Shown: positions 4,421-54,006 of the stretch, in pieces
How positions within the stretch are numbered: position 1 is the first letter of the stretch
Layout of the letters: every line of letters begins with the position of its first letter
NCBI GenBank assembly: GCA_016935115.1
Contig: JAFGRN010000004.1
Span: 5,778 to 69,777 of the forward strand
Source: Candidatus Omnitrophota bacterium
Lineage (GTDB): Bacteria; Omnitrophota; Gorgyraeia; 2-01-FULL-45-10
Direction: 5' to 3'
Length of the DNA stretch: 64,000 nt
Notes under the pieces: model-generated
What the model was told of the DNA's origin: nothing
The model's input: the letters and a program-made list of their open reading frames with translations, nothing else
Databases searched by the model: none
Made by a program: the position numbers and the translations under genes

Positions 4421-5562
<1,142 letters not shown>

Positions 5563-6567
5563 TCAGAGGATCAGCGTAGCGTCACCGTAGCTGAAGAACC
5601 TGTACCGCCTGTCGATCGCTTCACGATAGGCATCCATTATAAAATCCCTGCCGGCAAAAGCCGAGGCCAGGATGAGAAGCGTCGATCTCGGCAGGTGAAA
5701 ATTTGTTATAAGATGGTCTGTGATCTTAAAGCTGTACCCCGGATATATAAAGAGGTCCGTCCATCCGGAAGCCGCCTTCAAGCCGGTGCCGCAGTGTTCC
5801 AGCACCCTGTTCGAGGTCGTTCCGGCCGCGAATACCCTGCCTCCGCTCTCTTTTACCGCCCGTACTGTATCGGCGGCCTCCTGCGGCAGCTCGAAGTACT
5901 CCCTGTGCATCTTATGGCCTTCTATCTCTTCGCATTTTACCGGAGCGAATGTGCCGTAATTGGTATGGAGGGTGATATACGCTATCTTCACGCCCTTCGA
6001 CCTGATCTTATCCAGGATCTCCGAGGTGAAGTGCAGCCCCGCGGTCGGGCTCGCCGTCGCGCCCTCCCTGCTTCCGTAAACGGTCTGATAGTCGCCGATA
6101 TCTCCTTCTTCATCTTTTCTATCTATGTACGGCGGCAGCGGAACATGCCCCTCCCTGGCCAATACCTCATCTATCGGGCGGGCGAACCTTACGAACCTGC
6201 CCACCGGGCCTCTGCCCAGAACTTCAACCTCATCTCCGGATTCGAGCGCAACCCTCTCGCCCTCCTTTATCCGCACGGAAGGCCTGAGAAGCGCTTCGGC
6301 AGCGGGCTCTTTCTTCTCGAGGAGAAATATCTCAACCCTGCCGCCGGTCTTCCGCCTGGCAAATAACCTGGCAGGTATCACTTTTGTATTATTCAATACA
6401 AGGCAGTCGCCCGGGGAAAAGTAATCGACTATATCCCGGAATATCCTGTGTTCCACCGACCGTTTCGCGCGGTCCATTACCATAAGGCGGCATTTGTCAC
6501 GCTTCTTCGCCGGATACTGCGCTATAAGATCTTTTGGCAGGCTGTAATCGAATTCCGAAAGTTTCAT
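5563..6567 (-). CDS. queA: S-adenosylmethionine:tRNA ribosyltransferase-isomerase
   Basis: 334 aa. The N-terminus MKLSEFDYSLPKDLIAQYP and the GTTS.R and SYGDA motifs are typical of QueA. Confidence 0.95.
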   Translation of the reverse strand: MKLSEFDYSLPKDLIAQYPAKKRDKCRLMVMDRAKRSVEHRIFRDIVDYFSPGDCLVLNNTKVIPARLFARRKTGGRVEIFLLEKKEPAAEALLRPSVRIKEGERVALESGDEVEVLGRGPVGRFVRFARPIDEVLAREGHVPLPPYIDRKDEEGDIGDYQTVYGSREGATASPTAGLHFTSEILDKIRSKGVKIAYITLHTNYGTFAPVKCEEIEGHKMHREYFELPQEAADTVRAVKESGGRVFAAGTTSNRVLEHCGTGLKAASGWTDLFIYPGYSFKITDHLITNFHLPRSTLLILASAFAGRDFIMDAYREAIDRRYRFFSYGDATLIL

Positions 6568-11891: not shown

Positions 11892-11944
11892 CGTCATTGC
11901 GAGTAACCCCCTCACGTCATTGCGAGGGCGAAGCCCGAAGCAAT
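11892..11944. repeat. Two copies of CGTCATTGCGAG; the second copy extends into a nested hairpin
   Basis: cgtcattgcgag occurs at 11892-11903 and 11915-11926. The second continues as ATTGC-GA-GGGC-GAA-GCCC-GAA-GCAAT (11919-11944). The minus-strand translation gives the ...LRPRNDV...LLAMT... pseudo-peptide seen in ORF 11784..11966. Confidence 0.7.
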
Positions 11945-11992
11945 CTCTCCTCATGCAAAAAATCACTCTGACCCATTTTCTTGATCATAATA

Positions 11993-12107
11993 GAAAATTT
12001 AGGGACGTTTTCAAAATTAGCTTCAGACCTGTCCCCATGAAAATTTAGGGACGTTTTCAAAATTAGCTTCAGACCTGTCCCCATTTTTAGCTTCAGGTCT
12101 GTCCCCC
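11993..12107. repeat. Tandem 46-bp direct repeat (2 full units plus a 23-nt partial unit)
   Basis: The unit gaaaatttagggacgttttcaaaattagcttcagacctgtccccat occurs at 11993-12038 and is identical at 12039-12084. The partial unit ttttagcttcaggtctgtccccc (12085-12107) carries the core 8-mer CAGACCTG replaced by its reverse complement CAGGTCTG. Confidence 0.9.
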
Positions 12108-20775: not shown

Positions 20776-21440
20776 CTGAATATCGCCCTTCCTATGCGCA
20801 CAAGAGTGGCGCCCTCTTCTACCGCCACCTCAAAGTCATTGGACATTCCCATGGAGAGCATGGAGTAATTCGTTCCGAGCTCGACATTTACCTTTTCGAG
20901 AATCTGCCGAAGGCCCGCGAAATAAGGCCTCACCTCTTCGGGATCGTCCGCCTCGGGAGCGATCGTCATGAGCCCCCTGATCGAGATATTGGGGCAAGCA
21001 ACGATCTCTTTCAATACGCCCGCCGCCGATTCCGGCGGGATCCCGAACTTCGACTTCTCGCCGGATATATTGACCTGGACCAGGATATCCTGCCTCTTAC
21101 CGATACGGCCGGCTTCTTTATCTATTGCATCGGCAAGCCTAACGCTATCCACAGAGTGAATAAGCGAAAATATGCCTACGGCATCTCTCGCCTTATTCGT
21201 CTGCAGGTGGCCTATCAGGTGCCACTCGGCCCGGTTGCCTATCGCAGCGTGTTTGCGGGCCGCATCCTGCACCCTGTTTTCACCGAAAATCTTAATCCCC
21301 GCCCTGGCCGCCTCCAGCATCTGCGATACGGAGGCTTCTTTGGTCACACATACCAGCTGCACACTGCCGGCAGGCCGGCCTGTTTTTTCGCAACACTTTG
21401 CTATTCTTTGCGTTACGGATTTGATATTGTCGGCTATCAT
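20772..21440 (-). CDS. yggS: YggS-family pyridoxal-phosphate homeostasis protein
   Basis: Alanine-racemase-N fold protein with FGENRVQD, HLIGHLQTNK and SMGMS motifs. The start is uncertain: ATG 21440 or 21449, or TTG 21461. Confidence 0.88.
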   Translation of the reverse strand: MIADNIKSVTQRIAKCCEKTGRPAGSVQLVCVTKEASVSQMLEAARAGIKIFGENRVQDAARKHAAIGNRAEWHLIGHLQTNKARDAVGIFSLIHSVDSVRLADAIDKEAGRIGKRQDILVQVNISGEKSKFGIPPESAAGVLKEIVACPNISIRGLMTIAPEADDPEEVRPYFAGLRQILEKVNVELGTNYSMLSMGMSNDFEVAVEEGATLVRIGRAIFR

Positions 21441-21449
21441 TCGCGGCAT

Positions 21450-21478
21450 AAAATAACACAATAGTCCTCAAAAGTCAA
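21450..21478 (-). promoter_or_regulatory. Candidate promoter of the yggS-proC-yggT-mtnP-ileS unit
   Basis: The minus strand reads TTGACT-17 nt-TATTTT. The -10 box abuts the first ATG, so the transcript may be leaderless or nearly so at ATG 21440. Confidence 0.4.
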
Positions 21479-21520
21479 CGCAATTCAGGGCAAAAATATC
21501 CCCTGGCTCCTCCACCAGCT

Positions 21521-21802
21521 AAGCCATGATCCAAAGTTATGTTCGCACTGAAAATATCTCCCATGTACTCAAATCTACAGGGACCGGTCTTTTGTTCAGG
21601 ATAAAAAGGGGAACCTGCTTAAACTCGGCCACTTGGAAGTGGCCTCATCCTCCTACGCCTTCAACGCTTAGATTGTACGAGGCTTCGAAAGGACGCCTAT
21701 AGTAATACCACTGCGACATCCTCGGTTCTTTTTAACCCTTTTTATCCTTCTCAAAAGACCTGATATTTTCAATGTGCTCTCTATAACTTCGGATCATGGC
21801 TT
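21521..21802. repeat. Long imperfect palindrome (about 280 nt); MITE-like element or structured RNA
   Basis: Arm 21521-21615 is the reverse complement of 21726-21802. Paired blocks: 20 nt with 1 mismatch (aagccatgatccAaagttat), tgaaaatatc (10/10), ggtcttttg (9/9), ggataaaaaggg (12/12) and gaacc. The left arm has a 27-nt asymmetric bulge. The apex contains GGCCAC-TTGGAA-GTGGCC. Confidence 0.8.
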
Positions 21803-21894
21803 ACTGTATACAAGTAGTCCTAGTTTATGTATAGGCTACTTGCTACCCCCTCACGAGAGGGATTTTTCGGCTATTAGTTTCTGTAGTAGTAGAG

Positions 21895-21955
21895 TAGGGA
21901 CGTTTTCAAAATTAGCTTCAGATGTGTCCCCATTTTTAGCTTCAGACCTGTCCCC
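21895..21955. repeat. Second copy of the TAGGGACG...GTCCCC element seen at 12046-12107
   Basis: tagggacgttttcaaaattagcttcagatgtgtccccatttttagcttcagacctgtcccc is the same as 12047-12106 except for the two CAG-NNNN-TG cores. Confidence 0.9.
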
Positions 21956-21971
21956 GGCAGCTGCTTTCATA

Positions 21972-22182
21972 GCAAAAATATTGCATAGTCTGTAGCCCTG
22001 TGGCCCGGGTGCTAAAGCGGGGCGTCGAAAGTCGTAGGGCGTGGCATGGTTTTTTAGCCCGGGACACATACTATATGCTAAAAAGAACGAGCGACCTTTC
22101 CGAGTGGAAATTCCTCGCAGGGGAATTTCCACGTCCCCGCGAAGTACCCGGGCCACAGGGCAGAGCTGGGGGATATTTTTGC
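21972..22182. repeat. Second long imperfect palindrome (about 210 nt) abutting the glgB stop codon
   Basis: gcaaaaatat...gccctgtggcccgggt (21972-22010) pairs with 22146-22182 (the 16-nt block is perfect). Inner pairs are gcggggcgt/acgtccccgc and tttttagc/gctaaaaa. There is also an 11-bp side hairpin gtggaaattcc-tcgcagg-ggaatttccac (22104-22132). Confidence 0.8.
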
Positions 22183-24081
22183 TTATTCCTGCTGCTTGAA
22201 TGCCACGATACCCAGCGGCGGGAGGCTGAGGAGGAGAGAGTAATTTCTGCCGTGGCACGGAATAGCATCGGCAGTGACACCGCCGAAGTTGCCGTTACCG
22301 CTGCCGCCGTAATCGGCCGCGTCGCTATTGAGCGCCTCTTTCCAGAACCCGCCCGACGGAACGCCTACGCGGTAACCATGGCGGGGCACAGGCGTGAAAT
22401 TGCAAACTACGAGCAACGGTCCCGCCCCGCGCGAACGGCCCTTCCTTAAAAATGAGATTATGCTCCCTTCATAATCTTTCAGGTCGACCCATTCAAATCC
22501 CTCGCAGGAGAAGTCCGCTTCGTACAGAGCCGGTTCGTTCCTGTAGAAGCGGTTAAGGTCGTGGACCCAGCGCCGTATTCCGCGATGCACCGGCTCACGA
22601 TCCAGGTGCCAATCGAGGCTGCGCTCATGGTTCCACTCCGCCTGCTGGCCGAATTCTCCGCCCATAAATAGAAGCTTCTTGCCCGGATGCATCCACATAT
22701 AGCCTAAAAGCTGGCGCAATCCCGCGCACTTCTGCCAGAAATCCCCGGGCATCTTGCTGAAGAGTGAACCTTTGCCGTGCGCAACCTCATCATGGGATAA
22801 AGGCAGCATAAAGTTCTCGGTAAACGCATATAACAGGCTGAATGTCAGCATCCCGTGGTGATATTTTCTGAAGACCGGATCTTTCGAGATATACTCCAGG
22901 GTATCATGCATCCACCCCATATTCCACTTCATCCCGAAGCCCAGCCCGCCCACATACGTCGGGCGTGTCACCATCGGCCATGCGGTCGACTCTTCCGCGA
23001 TCACCTGGATTGACGGGAACTCCTTATATACCGTCTCATTCAGCAGCTTAAGGAAACTGACGGCTTCTATATTCTCCCTGCCCCCGAACTGGTTGGGAAT
23101 CCATTCGCCCGGTTTTCTGGAATAATCCAGATAGAGTATCGAAGCGACAGCGTCGATCCTCAGGCCGTCCGCGTGGTATTTATGGCACCAGAAGACGGCA
23201 TTGGATATAAGAAAACTGCGCACCTCATTGCGCCCGTAATTGAATATGAAACTATTCCAGTCCGGCTGAAAACCTTTACGCATATCCGCATGCTCATACA
23301 GGTGCGTACCATCGAAAAATATTAGGCCATGCTCGTCGGAGGGAAAGTGCGAAGGCACCCAGTCGAGGATCACTCCTATACCATGCTGATGAAGATAGTC
23401 GACCAGGTACATGAAATCCTGCGGAGTGCCGTACCGGGAAGTCGGCGCAAAGTACCCGGTTATCTGGTAACCCCACGAACCGTAGAACGGATGCTCCATG
23501 ACCGGCAGGAACTCTACATGCGTAAAACCCATCTCTCTCGCGTATGCCGCGAGAGCCGGGGCAAGCTCCCTGTATGTAAGAGGCCTGCCGCCTTCTTCAG
23601 GGACCCTGCGCCATGAACCAAGATGCACTTCATATACCGATATAGGAGATCCGAGGCTATTGGCCTTTGGCCGTGAATCGAGCCAGGAGTGGTCTTTCCA
23701 TTTATAATCCAGGTCCCATACTACGGATGCGGTCCTGGGGGGAGTCTCCCATAGGAGGGCAAACGGGTCCCCCTTTTCCGCCGAATAATTATTGAATTTG
23801 GATTTTATGAAATACTTATAAAGGGTACTGTTGCCGATGCCCGGTATGAAACCCTCCCATATGCCGGAAGAGTCCCTTCTTACAGCCAGAGGATGTGAAT
23901 CCCTGTTCCAGCCGTTAAATTCGCCTATTACGGATACAGACTCGGCATTCGGAGCCCAGACGGCAAAATAGGTGCCTTTCACTCCGTTATGCGAAACGAT
24001 ATGGGAACCCATCTTCTCATAAAGCCGGAAGTGGTTTCCCTCCCTGAAGAGGTGTATATCAAAATCGGAAAATAAGGTCAC
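22183..24081 (-). CDS. glgB: 1,4-alpha-glucan branching enzyme
   Basis: 632 aa. GH13 catalytic motifs are present (DGLRIDAVASILY, AEESTAWP, SHDEVAHGK), along with the N-terminal CBM48-like region. Confidence 0.95.
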   Translation of the reverse strand: MTLFSDFDIHLFREGNHFRLYEKMGSHIVSHNGVKGTYFAVWAPNAESVSVIGEFNGWNRDSHPLAVRRDSSGIWEGFIPGIGNSTLYKYFIKSKFNNYSAEKGDPFALLWETPPRTASVVWDLDYKWKDHSWLDSRPKANSLGSPISVYEVHLGSWRRVPEEGGRPLTYRELAPALAAYAREMGFTHVEFLPVMEHPFYGSWGYQITGYFAPTSRYGTPQDFMYLVDYLHQHGIGVILDWVPSHFPSDEHGLIFFDGTHLYEHADMRKGFQPDWNSFIFNYGRNEVRSFLISNAVFWCHKYHADGLRIDAVASILYLDYSRKPGEWIPNQFGGRENIEAVSFLKLLNETVYKEFPSIQVIAEESTAWPMVTRPTYVGGLGFGMKWNMGWMHDTLEYISKDPVFRKYHHGMLTFSLLYAFTENFMLPLSHDEVAHGKGSLFSKMPGDFWQKCAGLRQLLGYMWMHPGKKLLFMGGEFGQQAEWNHERSLDWHLDREPVHRGIRRWVHDLNRFYRNEPALYEADFSCEGFEWVDLKDYEGSIISFLRKGRSRGAGPLLVVCNFTPVPRHGYRVGVPSGGFWKEALNSDAADYGGSGNGNFGGVTADAIPCHGRNYSLLLSLPPLGIVAFKQQE

Positions 24082-52049: not shown

Positions 52050-52092
52050 AAAAAAATAGGGACTTTCCCCGAAGGGAACTGTCCCTATTTTT
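52050..52092 (-). terminator. Rho-independent terminator downstream of rnpB (symmetric, could act in both directions)
   Basis: aaaaaaa-TAGGGACtTTCCC-cgaa-GGGAAcTGTCCCTA-ttttt. The minus-strand U-tract follows the stem 19 nt after the rnpB 3' end. Confidence 0.75.
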
Positions 52093-52110
52093 AATGATTC
52101 AAATTATAAG

Positions 52111-52533
52111 TTTCGCAGGCCTGTAAGCCGAGTTCTGTCTTGCCCGGCTTGCGCCGGACGAGGCGTTCATCTATCTAGGCCGCGGATCACTCCGCGGCTC
52201 CAGCGACCTTACCCGCTCCGATACTGACGTCTATTCCAGTAGGATCGAGCAGATCCTTGATCGGAGCCTATTTGGTCTTGCTCCGCGTAGAGATTGGTCG
52301 TCTCACCCCTGCCGCCTTTCGGCGACAGGACTCGTCTCTGTCCTCTCATTGCCGTAGTTTCTACTGGCAATGATCCCGAGCGGCACTTAGTAAAGCTTGG
52401 TGCGCGCCGAGGGATTATCCTCGCCTTTCGACGGGCGGCCGTTAGCCGCTACGCTGCTCTGTGGAGCTCGGACTTTCCTCCCCCGCCGTTTTGCAAAGCA
52501 AAGCGGCGGGGGCGAACGCCCGGCCTGCGAAAA
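52111..52533 (-). ncRNA. rnpB: RNase P RNA, bacterial type A
   Basis: The minus strand contains GGGGAGGAAAGUCCGAGCUCC (P4 5' strand), ACAGAACUCGGCUUACAGG (P4 3' strand region), AGGGUGAGA / GCGGAGCAAGACCAAAUAGG-type conserved blocks, and a P1 helix UUCGCAGGCC/GGCCUGCGAA. The ends are approximate to within about 5 nt. Confidence 0.93.
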
Positions 52534-53929: not shown

Positions 53930-54006
53930 TGGTGGGCCCGCAAGGATTTGAACCTTGGACCAATAGATTATGAGTCTACTGCTCTGCCAGACTGAGCTAC
54001 AGGCCC
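53930..54006 (-). tRNA. tRNA with a CAU anticodon; probably tRNA-Ile2 (lysidine) rather than elongator Met; CCA encoded
   Basis: Acceptor GGGCCUG/CGGGCCC, anticodon loop CUCAUAA, T arm CAAGG-UUCAAAU-CCUUG. There is no GGG/CCC anticodon stem, so it is not an initiator. The acceptor stem is Ile-like, with C4:G69 and C5:G68. Confidence 0.85.

Follow-up and report, generated by a model that had tools for sequence, protein, structure and literature searches.

What does the gap between glgB and yggS contain, and is it a gene, a mobile element or mere folded DNA? In the window, by which we mean the whole 64-kb stretch of Candidatus Omnitrophota DNA that was analysed, this gap is the largest ORF-free stretch (718 bp by crude ORF tiling), as the initial annotation had pointed out, and the next-largest ones (418 and 347 bp) hold tRNAs and RNase P RNA. 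The Omnitrophota are uncultivated, ultra-small bacteria, and to our knowledge the phylum has no cultured model; a literature search returned nothing on Omnitrophota non-coding RNAs or intergenic repeats.

The island between glgB and yggS

On the right, the island is bordered by the glgB stop codon TAA (22185-22183, minus strand), which the right arm of an outer inverted repeat directly adjoins. On the left, the conserved start of yggS is ATG 21440 rather than TTG 21461 or the annotated ATG 21449, and its promoter borders the unit just outside the left repeat arm; since the start lies at 21440 and the promoter at 21478-21450, the non-coding stretch comes to about 730–740 bp. Two relatives share the TTGACT box and the ATGATAGCCGA start of yggS, and the yggS mRNA is probably leaderless or near-leaderless, driven by this promoter from ATG 21440. 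The features of the island are as follows, with the strand given where a feature has one; L020 is a JGI contig carrying a second copy of the unit, described below.

21450-21478, minus strand: yggS promoter from the promoter scan (-35 box TTGACT at 21478-21473, -10 box TATTTT at 21455-21450, spacer 17)
21490-21509: outer inverted repeat, left arm GCAAAAATATCCCCTGGCTC, made up of an A-tract and then a G+C half-stem
21493-21518, minus strand: small hairpin CTGGTGGAGGAGCCAG then GGGATATTTT, terminator-like in the terminator scan
21516-21806: hairpin A (left palindrome), the unit's conserved core, a rod of helices P1-P5 that carries an apical hairpin and, on one side, a bulge hairpin
21526-21532: helix P1 longer by 7 bp in the window (ATGATCC, with GGATCAT opposite at 21791-21797); both L020 arms lack this extension
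21558-21584: one-sided 27-nt bulge with its own small hairpin; conserved in position, variable in sequence, with one compensatory pair inside
21648-21716: 69-nt apex insertion, specific to the window (2 nt in L020)
21811-21842, plus strand: short hairpin right after hairpin A; an unrelated hairpin stands at the same position in L020 (5366-5400)
21848-21866, plus strand: terminator-like site CCCTCACGAGAGGG then ATTTTT from the terminator scan, in the window copy only
21895-21955: dispersed short repeat (TAGGGACGTTTTCAAAATTAGCTTCAGA..TGTCCCC units), inserted mid-unit outside the conserved core
21971-22183: hairpin B (right palindrome), long and G+C-rich, closed by GCAAAAAT / ATTTTTGC, conserved at its base alone
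22163-22182: outer inverted repeat, right arm GAGCTGGGGGATATTTTTGC, which doubles as the 3' base of hairpin B; its last position is the one before the glgB stop codon

All the repeats listed in the initial annotation were found again in place. The arms of the outer repeat, which enclose 653 bp, are complementary at 18/20 positions, and both mismatches are G.T on the plus strand. Hairpin A is built from the blocks 21520-21540/21783-21803 (20/21), 21546-21558/21762-21774 and 21586-21610/21736-21760, and its apex measures about 110 nt where about 105 nt had been given. Hairpin B contains the blocks 21971-21981/22173-22183 (11/11), a perfect 16-mer (21995-22010/22146-22161) and an 11-bp side hairpin (22104-22132), and it ends at the glgB stop codon as described; the plus-strand hairpin and the terminator-like site between the two palindromes were recovered as well. 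The motif said to recur through the island does so at up to two mismatches (four matches to the 14-mer GCAAAAATATCCCC versus 0.84 expected), but the exact matches are only the two outer repeat arms. A 16-nt direct repeat (21484-21499/21966-21981, 14/16) flanks neither palindrome.

Such repeats go far beyond what chance would give: of all inverted repeats in the window with arms at most 800 nt apart, the four longest lie inside the island, and their arms are collinear and near-perfect. The folding z-scores of the whole island are -14.5 on the plus and -10.7 on the minus strand, and each palindrome alone reaches -8 to -12 (hairpin A -10.0 on plus and -12.4 on minus; hairpin B -9.6 and -8.1). Moreover, the lack of recognisable coding content was borne out, since Pfam gave no match for four island ORFs, the concatenated six-frame translation of the island had no similar protein among 5.8 billion, and no short ORF is conserved between the window and L020 copies; ORFs that start in conserved blocks diverge at once (21 versus 79 codons on the plus strand, 24 versus 27 on the minus strand). 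A degraded gene or a hidden small gene was rejected on these three results. An assembly artefact was rejected too, as the arms have diverged from each other (85–88% identity, with indels) and a homologue is present in the independent assembly of another study. The island is thus confirmed as a real, highly folded non-coding unit.

A second copy and the conservation of hairpin A

The homologue is carried by L020, which belongs to another, distantly related Omnitrophota lineage (GlgB 79% identical). There, the unit lies at a different locus, 1.4 kb downstream of glgB, in a gap of 651 bp whose neighbours are a Cu-oxidase_4 gene and a HemN-like gene. Its parts follow one another as in the window: the A/T-tract repeat, then hairpin A, a short hairpin and hairpin B. 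Both blastn (E 2e-22 and 2e-10) and nhmmer place the homologue of hairpin A at L020 5146-5343, and the counterpart of hairpin B lies at 5419-5589, where the alignment z-score is 7.7 for the 3' base, 3.4 for the 5' base and -0.2 for the interior. The counterpart of the outer repeat (about 5094-5117) is weaker, with TGGCTGCTCCA versus TGGCTCCTCCA at 10/11, a weak A/T-rich pairing that alone is not significant (z 2.3), and GGGGATTGTTTCT stands at the place that corresponds to the small hairpin at 21493-21518. The region between the hairpins is unalignable (z -0.2). Part of this middle, 21895-21955, is 93% identical to 12046-12106 of the window, related to 12000-12060 too and missing from L020; by this comparison, dispersed repeats have been inserted into the middle of the island in the window only. 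The outer repeat, the two hairpins and their order appear from the alignments to be one unit, inherited together and not assembled by independent insertions.

Hairpin A is the part that has been kept. Its core is 81% identical between the two copies (172/213), with identical runs of 19–27 nt. The consensus structure, which was derived from the same two sequences and thus makes the covariation one pairwise comparison, has 61 pairs, 60 of them comparable: 55 are unchanged, five are compensatory, and none is one-sided or broken. When the 3' partner was slid by 1–3 columns as a control, 0–1 compensatory and 31–40 broken pairs were obtained. RNAalifold on a MAFFT alignment agrees (63 pairs, eight with both sides changed, none broken). 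In addition, differences between the copies fall at 10/120 paired and 31/93 unpaired positions, and the indels are mirrored across both arms. Several unpaired loops are identical in both copies, namely AGAGA/GAAC, the UUAAAAA bulge and CGAGGAUG, for which palindrome maintenance alone would not be enough. The comparison of two sequences thus shows a shape of hairpin A conserved with covariation. The proposal of one or two structured RNAs of 200–400 nt in the initial annotation, together with the covariation that it gave as a check, gains support in these two sequences, at any rate for the left palindrome; the right one is conserved at its base only and has an unalignable interior.

How much this conservation means can be judged from glgB. 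Between the window and L020, its third codon positions are 44.5% identical and its roughly four-fold sites 37%, i.e. saturated, and the hairpin A core is held as tightly as its first and second codon positions. That the unit was conserved while synonymous sites were randomised suggests that something selects on it, and the patchiness of the conservation, with 81% in the core of A and an unalignable middle and B interior, points to long-term constraint rather than recent transfer.

The unit is flipped relative to glgB between the two genomes, its flanking genes also differ, and its distance from the glgB stop codon is 0 kb in the window and 1.4 kb in L020. For a randomly placed single-copy element, linkage to glgB in both genomes would be a coincidence of about 2% (six glgB loci examined). 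The unit is not near glgB in five other relatives, nor near glgB or yggS in seven other relatives. Except for L020, the glgB relatives have different downstream genes with spacers of 20–184 bp; the yggS relatives keep the yggS-proC-yggT-MTAP-ileS-dksA cluster, with differing upstream genes and spacers of 78–130 bp. An identical ProC also occurs in SRR13394437. An empty site, which had been suggested as a thing to look for, was identified in none of the glgB or yggS relatives.

Dispersed copies were looked for too, and none was found: the window has no second copy of the unit, and there is no copy besides L020 in about 110 kb of Omnitrophota loci (25, fetched around glgB and yggS homologues). 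Exact-match scans, which miss diverged ends, gave one chance match of the left-palindrome repeat among species-representative genomes (a Lachnospiraceae genome) and eight unrelated single matches of the outer repeat in JGI metagenomes, about the chance expectation and none with a partner arm. Six scans of viral contigs, which covered five island motifs, were empty but for three chance 18-mers, and blastn against plasmids and phages gave no match. The public collections scanned do not contain the window's own MAG, as exact 20-mers of the window failed to return it. Furthermore, Rfam, also named as a check in the initial annotation, gave no real match on either copy: nothing for the island at the gathering score, applied to the whole window, or at E up to 1, and only noise at E up to 10, and nothing at E up to 10 for the L020 copy. 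ARAGORN found no tRNA or tmRNA in the island. By these comparisons, the unit neither gives a coding signal nor matches any known RNA family, and it is present in two distant genomes.

Strand signals and possible readings of the unit

The signals for the strand conflict, since hairpin A has its three wobble positions on the minus strand while hairpin B and the outer repeat have six G.U pairs on the plus strand and none on the minus strand. Folding energies favour minus for A and plus for B by 8–18 kcal/mol in both genomes (for hairpin B in the window, -114.4 kcal/mol on plus versus -96.0 on minus). A strand call from these energies was dropped, as shuffles traced the difference mainly to base composition and the two strands are not told apart by their z-scores. 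For hairpin A, there is a mild preference for the minus strand, on which the small hairpin at 21493-21518 would sit directly 3' of it. Promoter and terminator scans of the window gave no consistent transcription unit. The promoter-like sites in the window copy are the yggS promoter and one plus-strand match at 21427-21454, both outside the repeats, with none between them; in the L020 copy, five promoter-like candidates are spread over both strands. The plus-strand terminator-like site (21848-21866) falls mid-unit in the window copy. Ordinary terminators in the group share the A-tract/stem/T-tract form (window 52052-52092, L007 4895-4939), and the L020 gene upstream of the unit has its own ordinary terminator before it.

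We tentatively regard the island as most likely a candidate locus for a new structured non-coding RNA. Under this reading, the unit would be a 0.5–0.7-kb non-coding locus in which hairpins A and B are bracketed by an A-tract/T-tract inverted repeat, and it would be the gene for one such RNA, possibly a pair. Hairpin A would be the functional core, a rod of about 210 nt whose compensating substitutions keep the helices paired, and its asymmetric internal loops, invariant and purine-rich on the minus strand, would probably be where a protein or RNA partner makes contact; the window copy would carry lineage-specific expansions (a stem longer by 7 bp and an apical branch of 69 nt). Hairpin B, together with tails of the GGGGATATTTTTGC type, might form end modules, an oversized terminator or stabiliser of A-tract, G+C stem and U-tract that would set the transcript ends and shield the adjacent leaderless yggS promoter from read-through. 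The simplest route of expression in the window would be read-through from glgB on the minus strand, in the order B, A, U-rich tail. We infer from the above that the folded molecule is RNA and not single-stranded DNA, and so too the expressed strand of the unit, the terminator role of hairpin B and the binding partner of hairpin A. The fuller version, in which a two-domain structured RNA of 0.5–0.7 kb, not described before, is sighted here for the first time, linked to glgB in a clade of the Omnitrophota and with hairpin A as a protein-binding rod, is possible but doubtful.

A non-autonomous mobile element, MITE-like and composite or nested as the initial annotation had it, whose terminal repeats (GCAAAAATATCCCC...) would be read by a transposase encoded elsewhere and whose long hairpins would be kept for movement, e.g. 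as binding sites or in a single-stranded intermediate (DNA or RNA), is a less likely explanation, though one to be taken seriously. It fits the bracketing repeats (20-bp outer repeats at 18/20, hairpin A termini at 20/21), the differing neighbours, the flip relative to glgB and the absence from five glgB relatives; moreover, the unit has no coding capacity, is missing near glgB or yggS in seven other relatives and sits at a synteny breakpoint, and the window genome holds dispersed short repeats, one of them inside the island. Both termini of hairpin A read TA|AGCC...GGCT|TA in both copies, compatible with a TA duplication, but these TA flanks belong to the palindrome, and the outer repeat has no flanking direct repeat. 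From the earlier proposal, the terminal repeats and the lack of coding content stand; no target-site duplication is evident, and the palindromes were inherited together. A related autonomous element sharing these ends turned up neither in the window nor in the genome scan (left-palindrome repeat) or the JGI metagenome scan (outer repeat), where exact matching misses diverged ends, nor in plasmids and phages; the viral scans, made with five other island motifs, gave chance matches at most, and the collections that returned no further copy lack the window's own genome. Linkage to glgB in both genomes would need a high copy number or coincidence. Conservation peaks inside hairpin A with compensatory changes while the termini are weak (the 7-bp indel in P1, the degenerate outer repeat in L020), the reverse of the usual MITE pattern; were the unit mobile, it would be an unusually large hairpin element constrained in its interior, not at its ends. 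The invertible segment also suggested there, in which a recombinase would flip the 653 bp between the 20-bp repeats and thereby alter glgB read-through into the yggS operon, is very improbable. The spacing of the repeats, the one-directional terminator-like site inside them and the opposite orientation of the unit relative to glgB in the two genomes would suit it, but the yggS promoter lies outside the repeats with no promoter-like site inside in the window, the differing flanking genes mean that the flip is not a simple in-place inversion, and inversion gives no reason for the covariation inside hairpin A. Nor is a recombinase evident over about 12 kb on the yggS side and 8 kb on the glgB side, where the neighbours, judged by eye from their translations and by Pfam on seven ORFs (three without match), are housekeeping genes or unknown proteins.

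The same structures could be read as functionless DNA palindromes, i.e. bidirectional terminators at an operon boundary, grown by inverted duplication, kept symmetric by template-switch (quasipalindrome) correction and having no more than an incidental role in termination or in stabilising mRNA 3' ends; we consider this improbable. In its favour, the B base and the outer repeat share the A-tract, G+C stem and T-tract form of the group's terminators, the arms are collinear and near-perfect, and the B interior and middle region evolve freely. Template switching during replication can make and maintain hairpins (PMC8794818), and it can produce compensating changes in DNA palindromes in one step, without selection on RNA (PMC8794818, PMC7202029). 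However, symmetry correction should erase asymmetric loops, and those of hairpin A are identical in a core of 81% identity while synonymous sites are saturated; in addition, the L020 gene upstream has its own terminator, which makes the unit dispensable for termination there. It is hardly probable that the island is a divergent form of a known RNA or locus, such as 6S RNA, a CsrB/Rsm-like CsrA sponge, SRP RNA, tmRNA or a type I toxin-antitoxin system, as Rfam at E up to 10 gave noise at best on both copies and neither tmRNA nor tRNA was found. The rod of hairpin A with its closing stem recalls 6S RNA; this idea was rejected for want of a model match and because the bulge opens on one side only, whereas 6S has a two-sided bubble. 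At its apex, hairpin A has a conserved CGAGGAUGU that looks like a site for CsrA binding, and the linkage to glgB had raised the idea of a CsrA sponge; it was rejected because GGA counts over the whole unit are at or below the shuffle expectation on both strands of both copies (only 6 on plus and 4 on minus in the 476-nt L020 unit), the sole higher value being 6 versus 2.4 ± 1.4 expected for the plus strand of hairpin A in the window. The long-range pairing of the unit ends recalls type I toxin mRNAs, but the window and L020 copies have no short ORF in common and no conserved short hydrophobic one.

If the structured RNA reading is right, the unit would represent a new large structured RNA family and a target for metatranscriptomics and structure probing. 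Whether the unit is an RNA gene or mobile, the three exact conserved words CCTCGGTTCTTTTTAACCCTTTTT, GTTATGTTCGCACTGAAAATA and GTGCTCTCTATAACTTCGG would fetch the family from any sequence collection.

Comparison with known repeats, terminators and RNAs

The dispersed repeat inside the island is like REP/BIME-type repeats in that its units (21895-21955) are about 20–40 nt, partly palindromic and in tandem, with a second intergenic site at 12000-12106; it differs in that the two sites lack a shared GTAG-type REP signature, no RAYT-type transposase was seen, and the loci observed are two only. For the unit as a whole, Correia/NEMIS in Neisseria, ERIC in enterobacteria and RUP in pneumococcus offer the nearest mobile parallel; these MITE-like palindromes of intergenic regions exert their effect as RNA, measure 100–160 bp and number from tens to hundreds of copies, with target duplications. 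Like them, the unit is non-coding, intergenic and bracketed by terminal inverted repeats, would form a long hairpin when transcribed, and could carry or disrupt terminators and alter the stability of neighbouring mRNAs. Unlike them, it measures 500–700 bp, has yielded no further copy and no evident duplication, and is conserved most in its interior, not at its ends. Bidirectional intrinsic terminators share with the B base (GCAAAAAT ... GGGGGATATTTTTGC) and the outer repeat the layout of A-tract, G+C stem-loop and U-tract, but the 'stem' enclosed in the unit is 170–650 nt versus 10–20 bp, and no compact G+C stem stands immediately before its U-tract.

The large RNAs OLE, GOLLD, ROOL and HEARO, together with the rod-shaped 6S RNA, differ from the unit in that it matches none of their covariance models; it has two nearly collinear long hairpins in place of multi-junction folds and is known from two examples at the level of DNA sequence, and the 6S bubble is two-sided where the bulge of hairpin A is one-sided. 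The unit is like them in being several hundred nucleotides long and non-coding, with ends able to pair and close the molecule, helices that covary, unpaired loops that are invariant, stem lengths that vary, apical insertions, and a distribution within a narrow clade. Should the two-domain RNA reading prove true, the unit would join OLE, GOLLD and ROOL as a large non-coding RNA of the orphan kind.

The island between glgB and yggS

All genes surrounding the island, the gene-free gap between glgB and yggS, lie on the minus strand, and both glgB and yggS were confirmed by Pfam. At about 730 bp this is the biggest ORF-free gap of the window, as the initial annotation had stated, and every inverted repeat listed there is present; they are the four longest across the entire 64 kb. 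Folding of the island is much stronger than that of shuffled sequences whichever strand is taken (z -10.7 and -14.5), and the same holds for each palindrome alone. Its layout is as follows.

Features of the island and its borders
21440, minus strand: conserved ATG start of yggS
21478-21450, minus strand: yggS promoter box TTGACT-17-TATTTT, also present in two relatives
21484-21499 and 21966-21981: 16-nt direct repeat, TTCAGGGCAAAAATAT / TTCATAGCAAAAATAT, 14/16 positions matching
21490-21509 and 22163-22182: 20-bp outer inverted repeat
21516-21806: hairpin A, the left palindrome
21971-22183: hairpin B, the right palindrome
22185-22183, minus strand: stop codon TAA of glgB

The direct repeat extends 6 nt past the inverted repeat, and its two copies flank hairpin A together with the middle region (between A and B), so that the right end (22163-22182) is able to pair locally (21971-21981) or distally (21490-21509). 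The earlier view that recognisable ORF content is lacking holds, with no Pfam match among the island ORFs; the concatenated six-frame translation had no match among 5.8 billion proteins, and Rfam, a check proposed at that stage, and ARAGORN gave none on the island. The conserved yggS start across relatives is ATGATAGCCGA (window 21438-21478, minus strand; L007 4960-5010; L009 4940-5012); the annotated start (MPRM...) stands three codons upstream of it. The promoter ends 9 nt ahead of this conserved start, which suggests that the yggS mRNA may be leaderless or near-leaderless.

In relatives whose YggS is about 68% identical, the order yggS-proC-yggT-MTAP-ileS-dksA is retained, with different upstream genes and spacers of 78-130 bp; those with 76-80% GlgB identity have different genes downstream of glgB. 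Among loci L002, L004, L007, L009, L019, L021 and L025, the glgB-yggS adjacency (junction 21462-22182) is confined to the window's lineage. Since the sampled relatives have other neighbours at both genes, the island occupies a synteny breakpoint produced by rearrangement. A 2.7-kb Logan contig (L001, SRR13394437) encodes a ProC identical to that of the window and ends inside yggS, about 220 bp short of the island; this sequencing run thus contains the window's organism or a strain very near to it.

A second copy in another Omnitrophota lineage

The island was compared by blastn with all fetched loci, which were sampled only around glgB and yggS homologues. L020, an 8.3-kb JGI contig fetched solely for its GlgB (79% identical to the window's), matched in two segments: window 21716-21792 with 5267-5343 (88%, E 2e-22) and window 21536-21647 with 5154-5265 (75%, E 2e-10). 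Both segments fall 1.4 kb downstream of glgB, where 651 bp separate a Cu-oxidase_4 gene from a HemN-like gene; this gap, when read and folded, has the layout of the window.

Parts of the L020 copy, in order
Before hairpin A: A/T-rich stretch with a small hairpin
5146-5343: hairpin A
Between A and B: short hairpin, unrelated to the window's
5419-5589: long hairpin B, closed by GCAAAAAT / GGGGGAAATTTTTGC

In hairpin B, homology between the two genomes is clear for the 3' base (z 7.7) and weak for the 5' base (z 3.4); B's interior and the middle region do not align (z about 0). The matching layout indicates that the island, outer repeats included, is a real evolutionary unit. The only gene common to L020 and the window is glgB, relative to which the unit is flipped. 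Of the six other lineages sampled, one has the unit no more than 8 kb from glgB; such linkage would arise by coincidence in about 2% of cases for a single-copy locus placed at random, and is unremarkable if the family has 50 or more copies. In addition, at 5622-5663 of L020 a TTGTAA-17-TATAAT box stops 10 nt short of the ATG of the HemN-like gene, likely a second leaderless start in the group, and a divergent TTTACA-17-CATACT site is directed back into the unit.

The one part of the island with another occurrence in the window is the middle segment 21895-21955, which is found again at 12000-12106 in the mreB-aroA spacer (61 nt, 93% identity). This short dispersed repeat is distinct from the palindromes and has the units TAGGGACGTTTTCAAAA and TTAGCTTCAGACCTGTCCCC (three tandem occurrences in the mreB-aroA spacer, two inside the island); viral contigs and the fetched loci gave no match to it. 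The same spacer holds another repeat-like motif, CGTCATTGCGAG twice, 23 nt apart (11892-11950), followed by a nested palindrome ATTGCGAGGGCGAAGCCCGAAGCAAT. Exact-word scans with the left-palindrome repeat against genome representatives and with the outer repeat against JGI metagenomes gave chance matches only; neither returned the window sequence, so the window's own genome lies outside both collections. Searches of plasmids, phages and viral contigs gave nothing.

Conservation and covariation of hairpin A

At third codon positions of glgB the window and L020 share 44.5% identity, and at roughly four-fold sites 37%, meaning that neutral DNA is randomised between both genomes; the hairpin A core nevertheless retains 81% identity and includes unbroken matching runs of 19-27 nt. 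The two cores were aligned by hand after removal of three insertions found only in the window.

Window-only insertions in hairpin A
21526-21532: ATGATCC
21648-21716: 69-nt apex insertion
21791-21797: GGATCAT, mirror of ATGATCC

Consensus pairs of hairpin A in the two copies (61, of which 60 comparable)
Same in both: 55/60
Changed on both sides, still Watson-Crick: 5/60 (UA to GC, CG to UA, UA to GC, AU to GC, CG to UA)
Change confined to one side: 0/60
Broken: 0/60
Control with the 3' partner shifted 1-3 columns: 0-1 pairs compensatory and 31-40 broken
Paired positions differing: 10/120
Unpaired positions differing: 31/93

Covariation, a check put forward initially, thus gives five compensatory and no broken pairs for A, in two sequences from which the structure was itself inferred. 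RNAalifold on a MAFFT alignment concurs (63 pairs, 8 changed on both sides, 0 broken). Moreover, indels are mirrored across both arms (a 7-bp extension in the window, one extra pair in L020), and several asymmetric unpaired loops are identical in the two genomes. These patterns indicate selection on A, both on its fold and on its loops, for which a structured RNA is the usual reading. Recent transfer would yield even identity over the whole unit, and the identity observed is uneven. It is known that in imperfect DNA palindromes 'compensating' changes can arise in one step via replication template switching (PMC8794818, PMC7202029); the invariant asymmetric loops argue against this as the sole cause.

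In both genomes, folding energies favour the minus strand for A and the plus strand for B, and shuffles attribute this asymmetry largely to G versus C content, the z-scores failing to separate the strands. Hairpin A has three positions that are G.U on the minus strand and A.C on the plus strand, and read on the minus strand its conserved loops are rich in purines; B with the outer repeat has six G.U pairs on the plus strand and none on the minus strand. The promoter scan of the window found no promoter-like site between the outer repeats, so the simplest expression route would be minus-strand read-through from glgB, which would end at a hairpin plus GGGATATTTT, ahead of the yggS promoter. L020 offers promoter-like sites for every expression model.

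Possible nature of the unit

The comparison establishes that the two-hairpin unit is conserved and non-coding, that it is linked to glgB in both genomes, and that in hairpin A the helices covary and the loops are invariant. The unit carries lineage-specific expansions, and the window's middle region holds the inserted dispersed repeat. Among the three readings first offered, a structured RNA is the best supported, owing to the covariation in A. We tentatively favour, as a nearly even call, an RNA with A as its working part, the loops of which may contact a partner, and with B and the GGGGATATTTTTGC-type tails as enlarged terminators, which would set the transcript's limits, stabilise it and shield the leaderless promoter next to it.

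A non-autonomous mobile element is rather unlikely: it would account for the terminal repeats, the different neighbour genes, the flipped orientation and the patchy distribution, but the searches described above found no further copy, no target duplication is evident and conservation peaks in the interior. That these are function-free palindromes or oversized terminators is improbable; plain decaying palindromes would be expected to give no alignment at all. The invertible segment offered at first is now very improbable, because the repeats do not enclose the yggS promoter, the neighbouring genes include no evident recombinase and the two genomes have different flanks. Equally slight is the chance of a divergent known RNA: no model matches, GGA motifs show no enrichment, the bulge opens on one side only, and the two copies share no conserved ORF.

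The unit belongs to no described family and is a candidate new structured non-coding locus. Hairpin B and the tails can be likened to the ordinary A-tract/stem/U-tract terminators of this group, at window 52052-52092 and L007 4895-4939, of which the former illustrates the terminator style of this genome.

Reference features in the window
52052-52092: A-tract/stem/T-tract hairpin adjoining the RNase P RNA
52108-52531: RNase P RNA, class A, 189 bits
53704-53777 and 53933-54006: two tRNA genes
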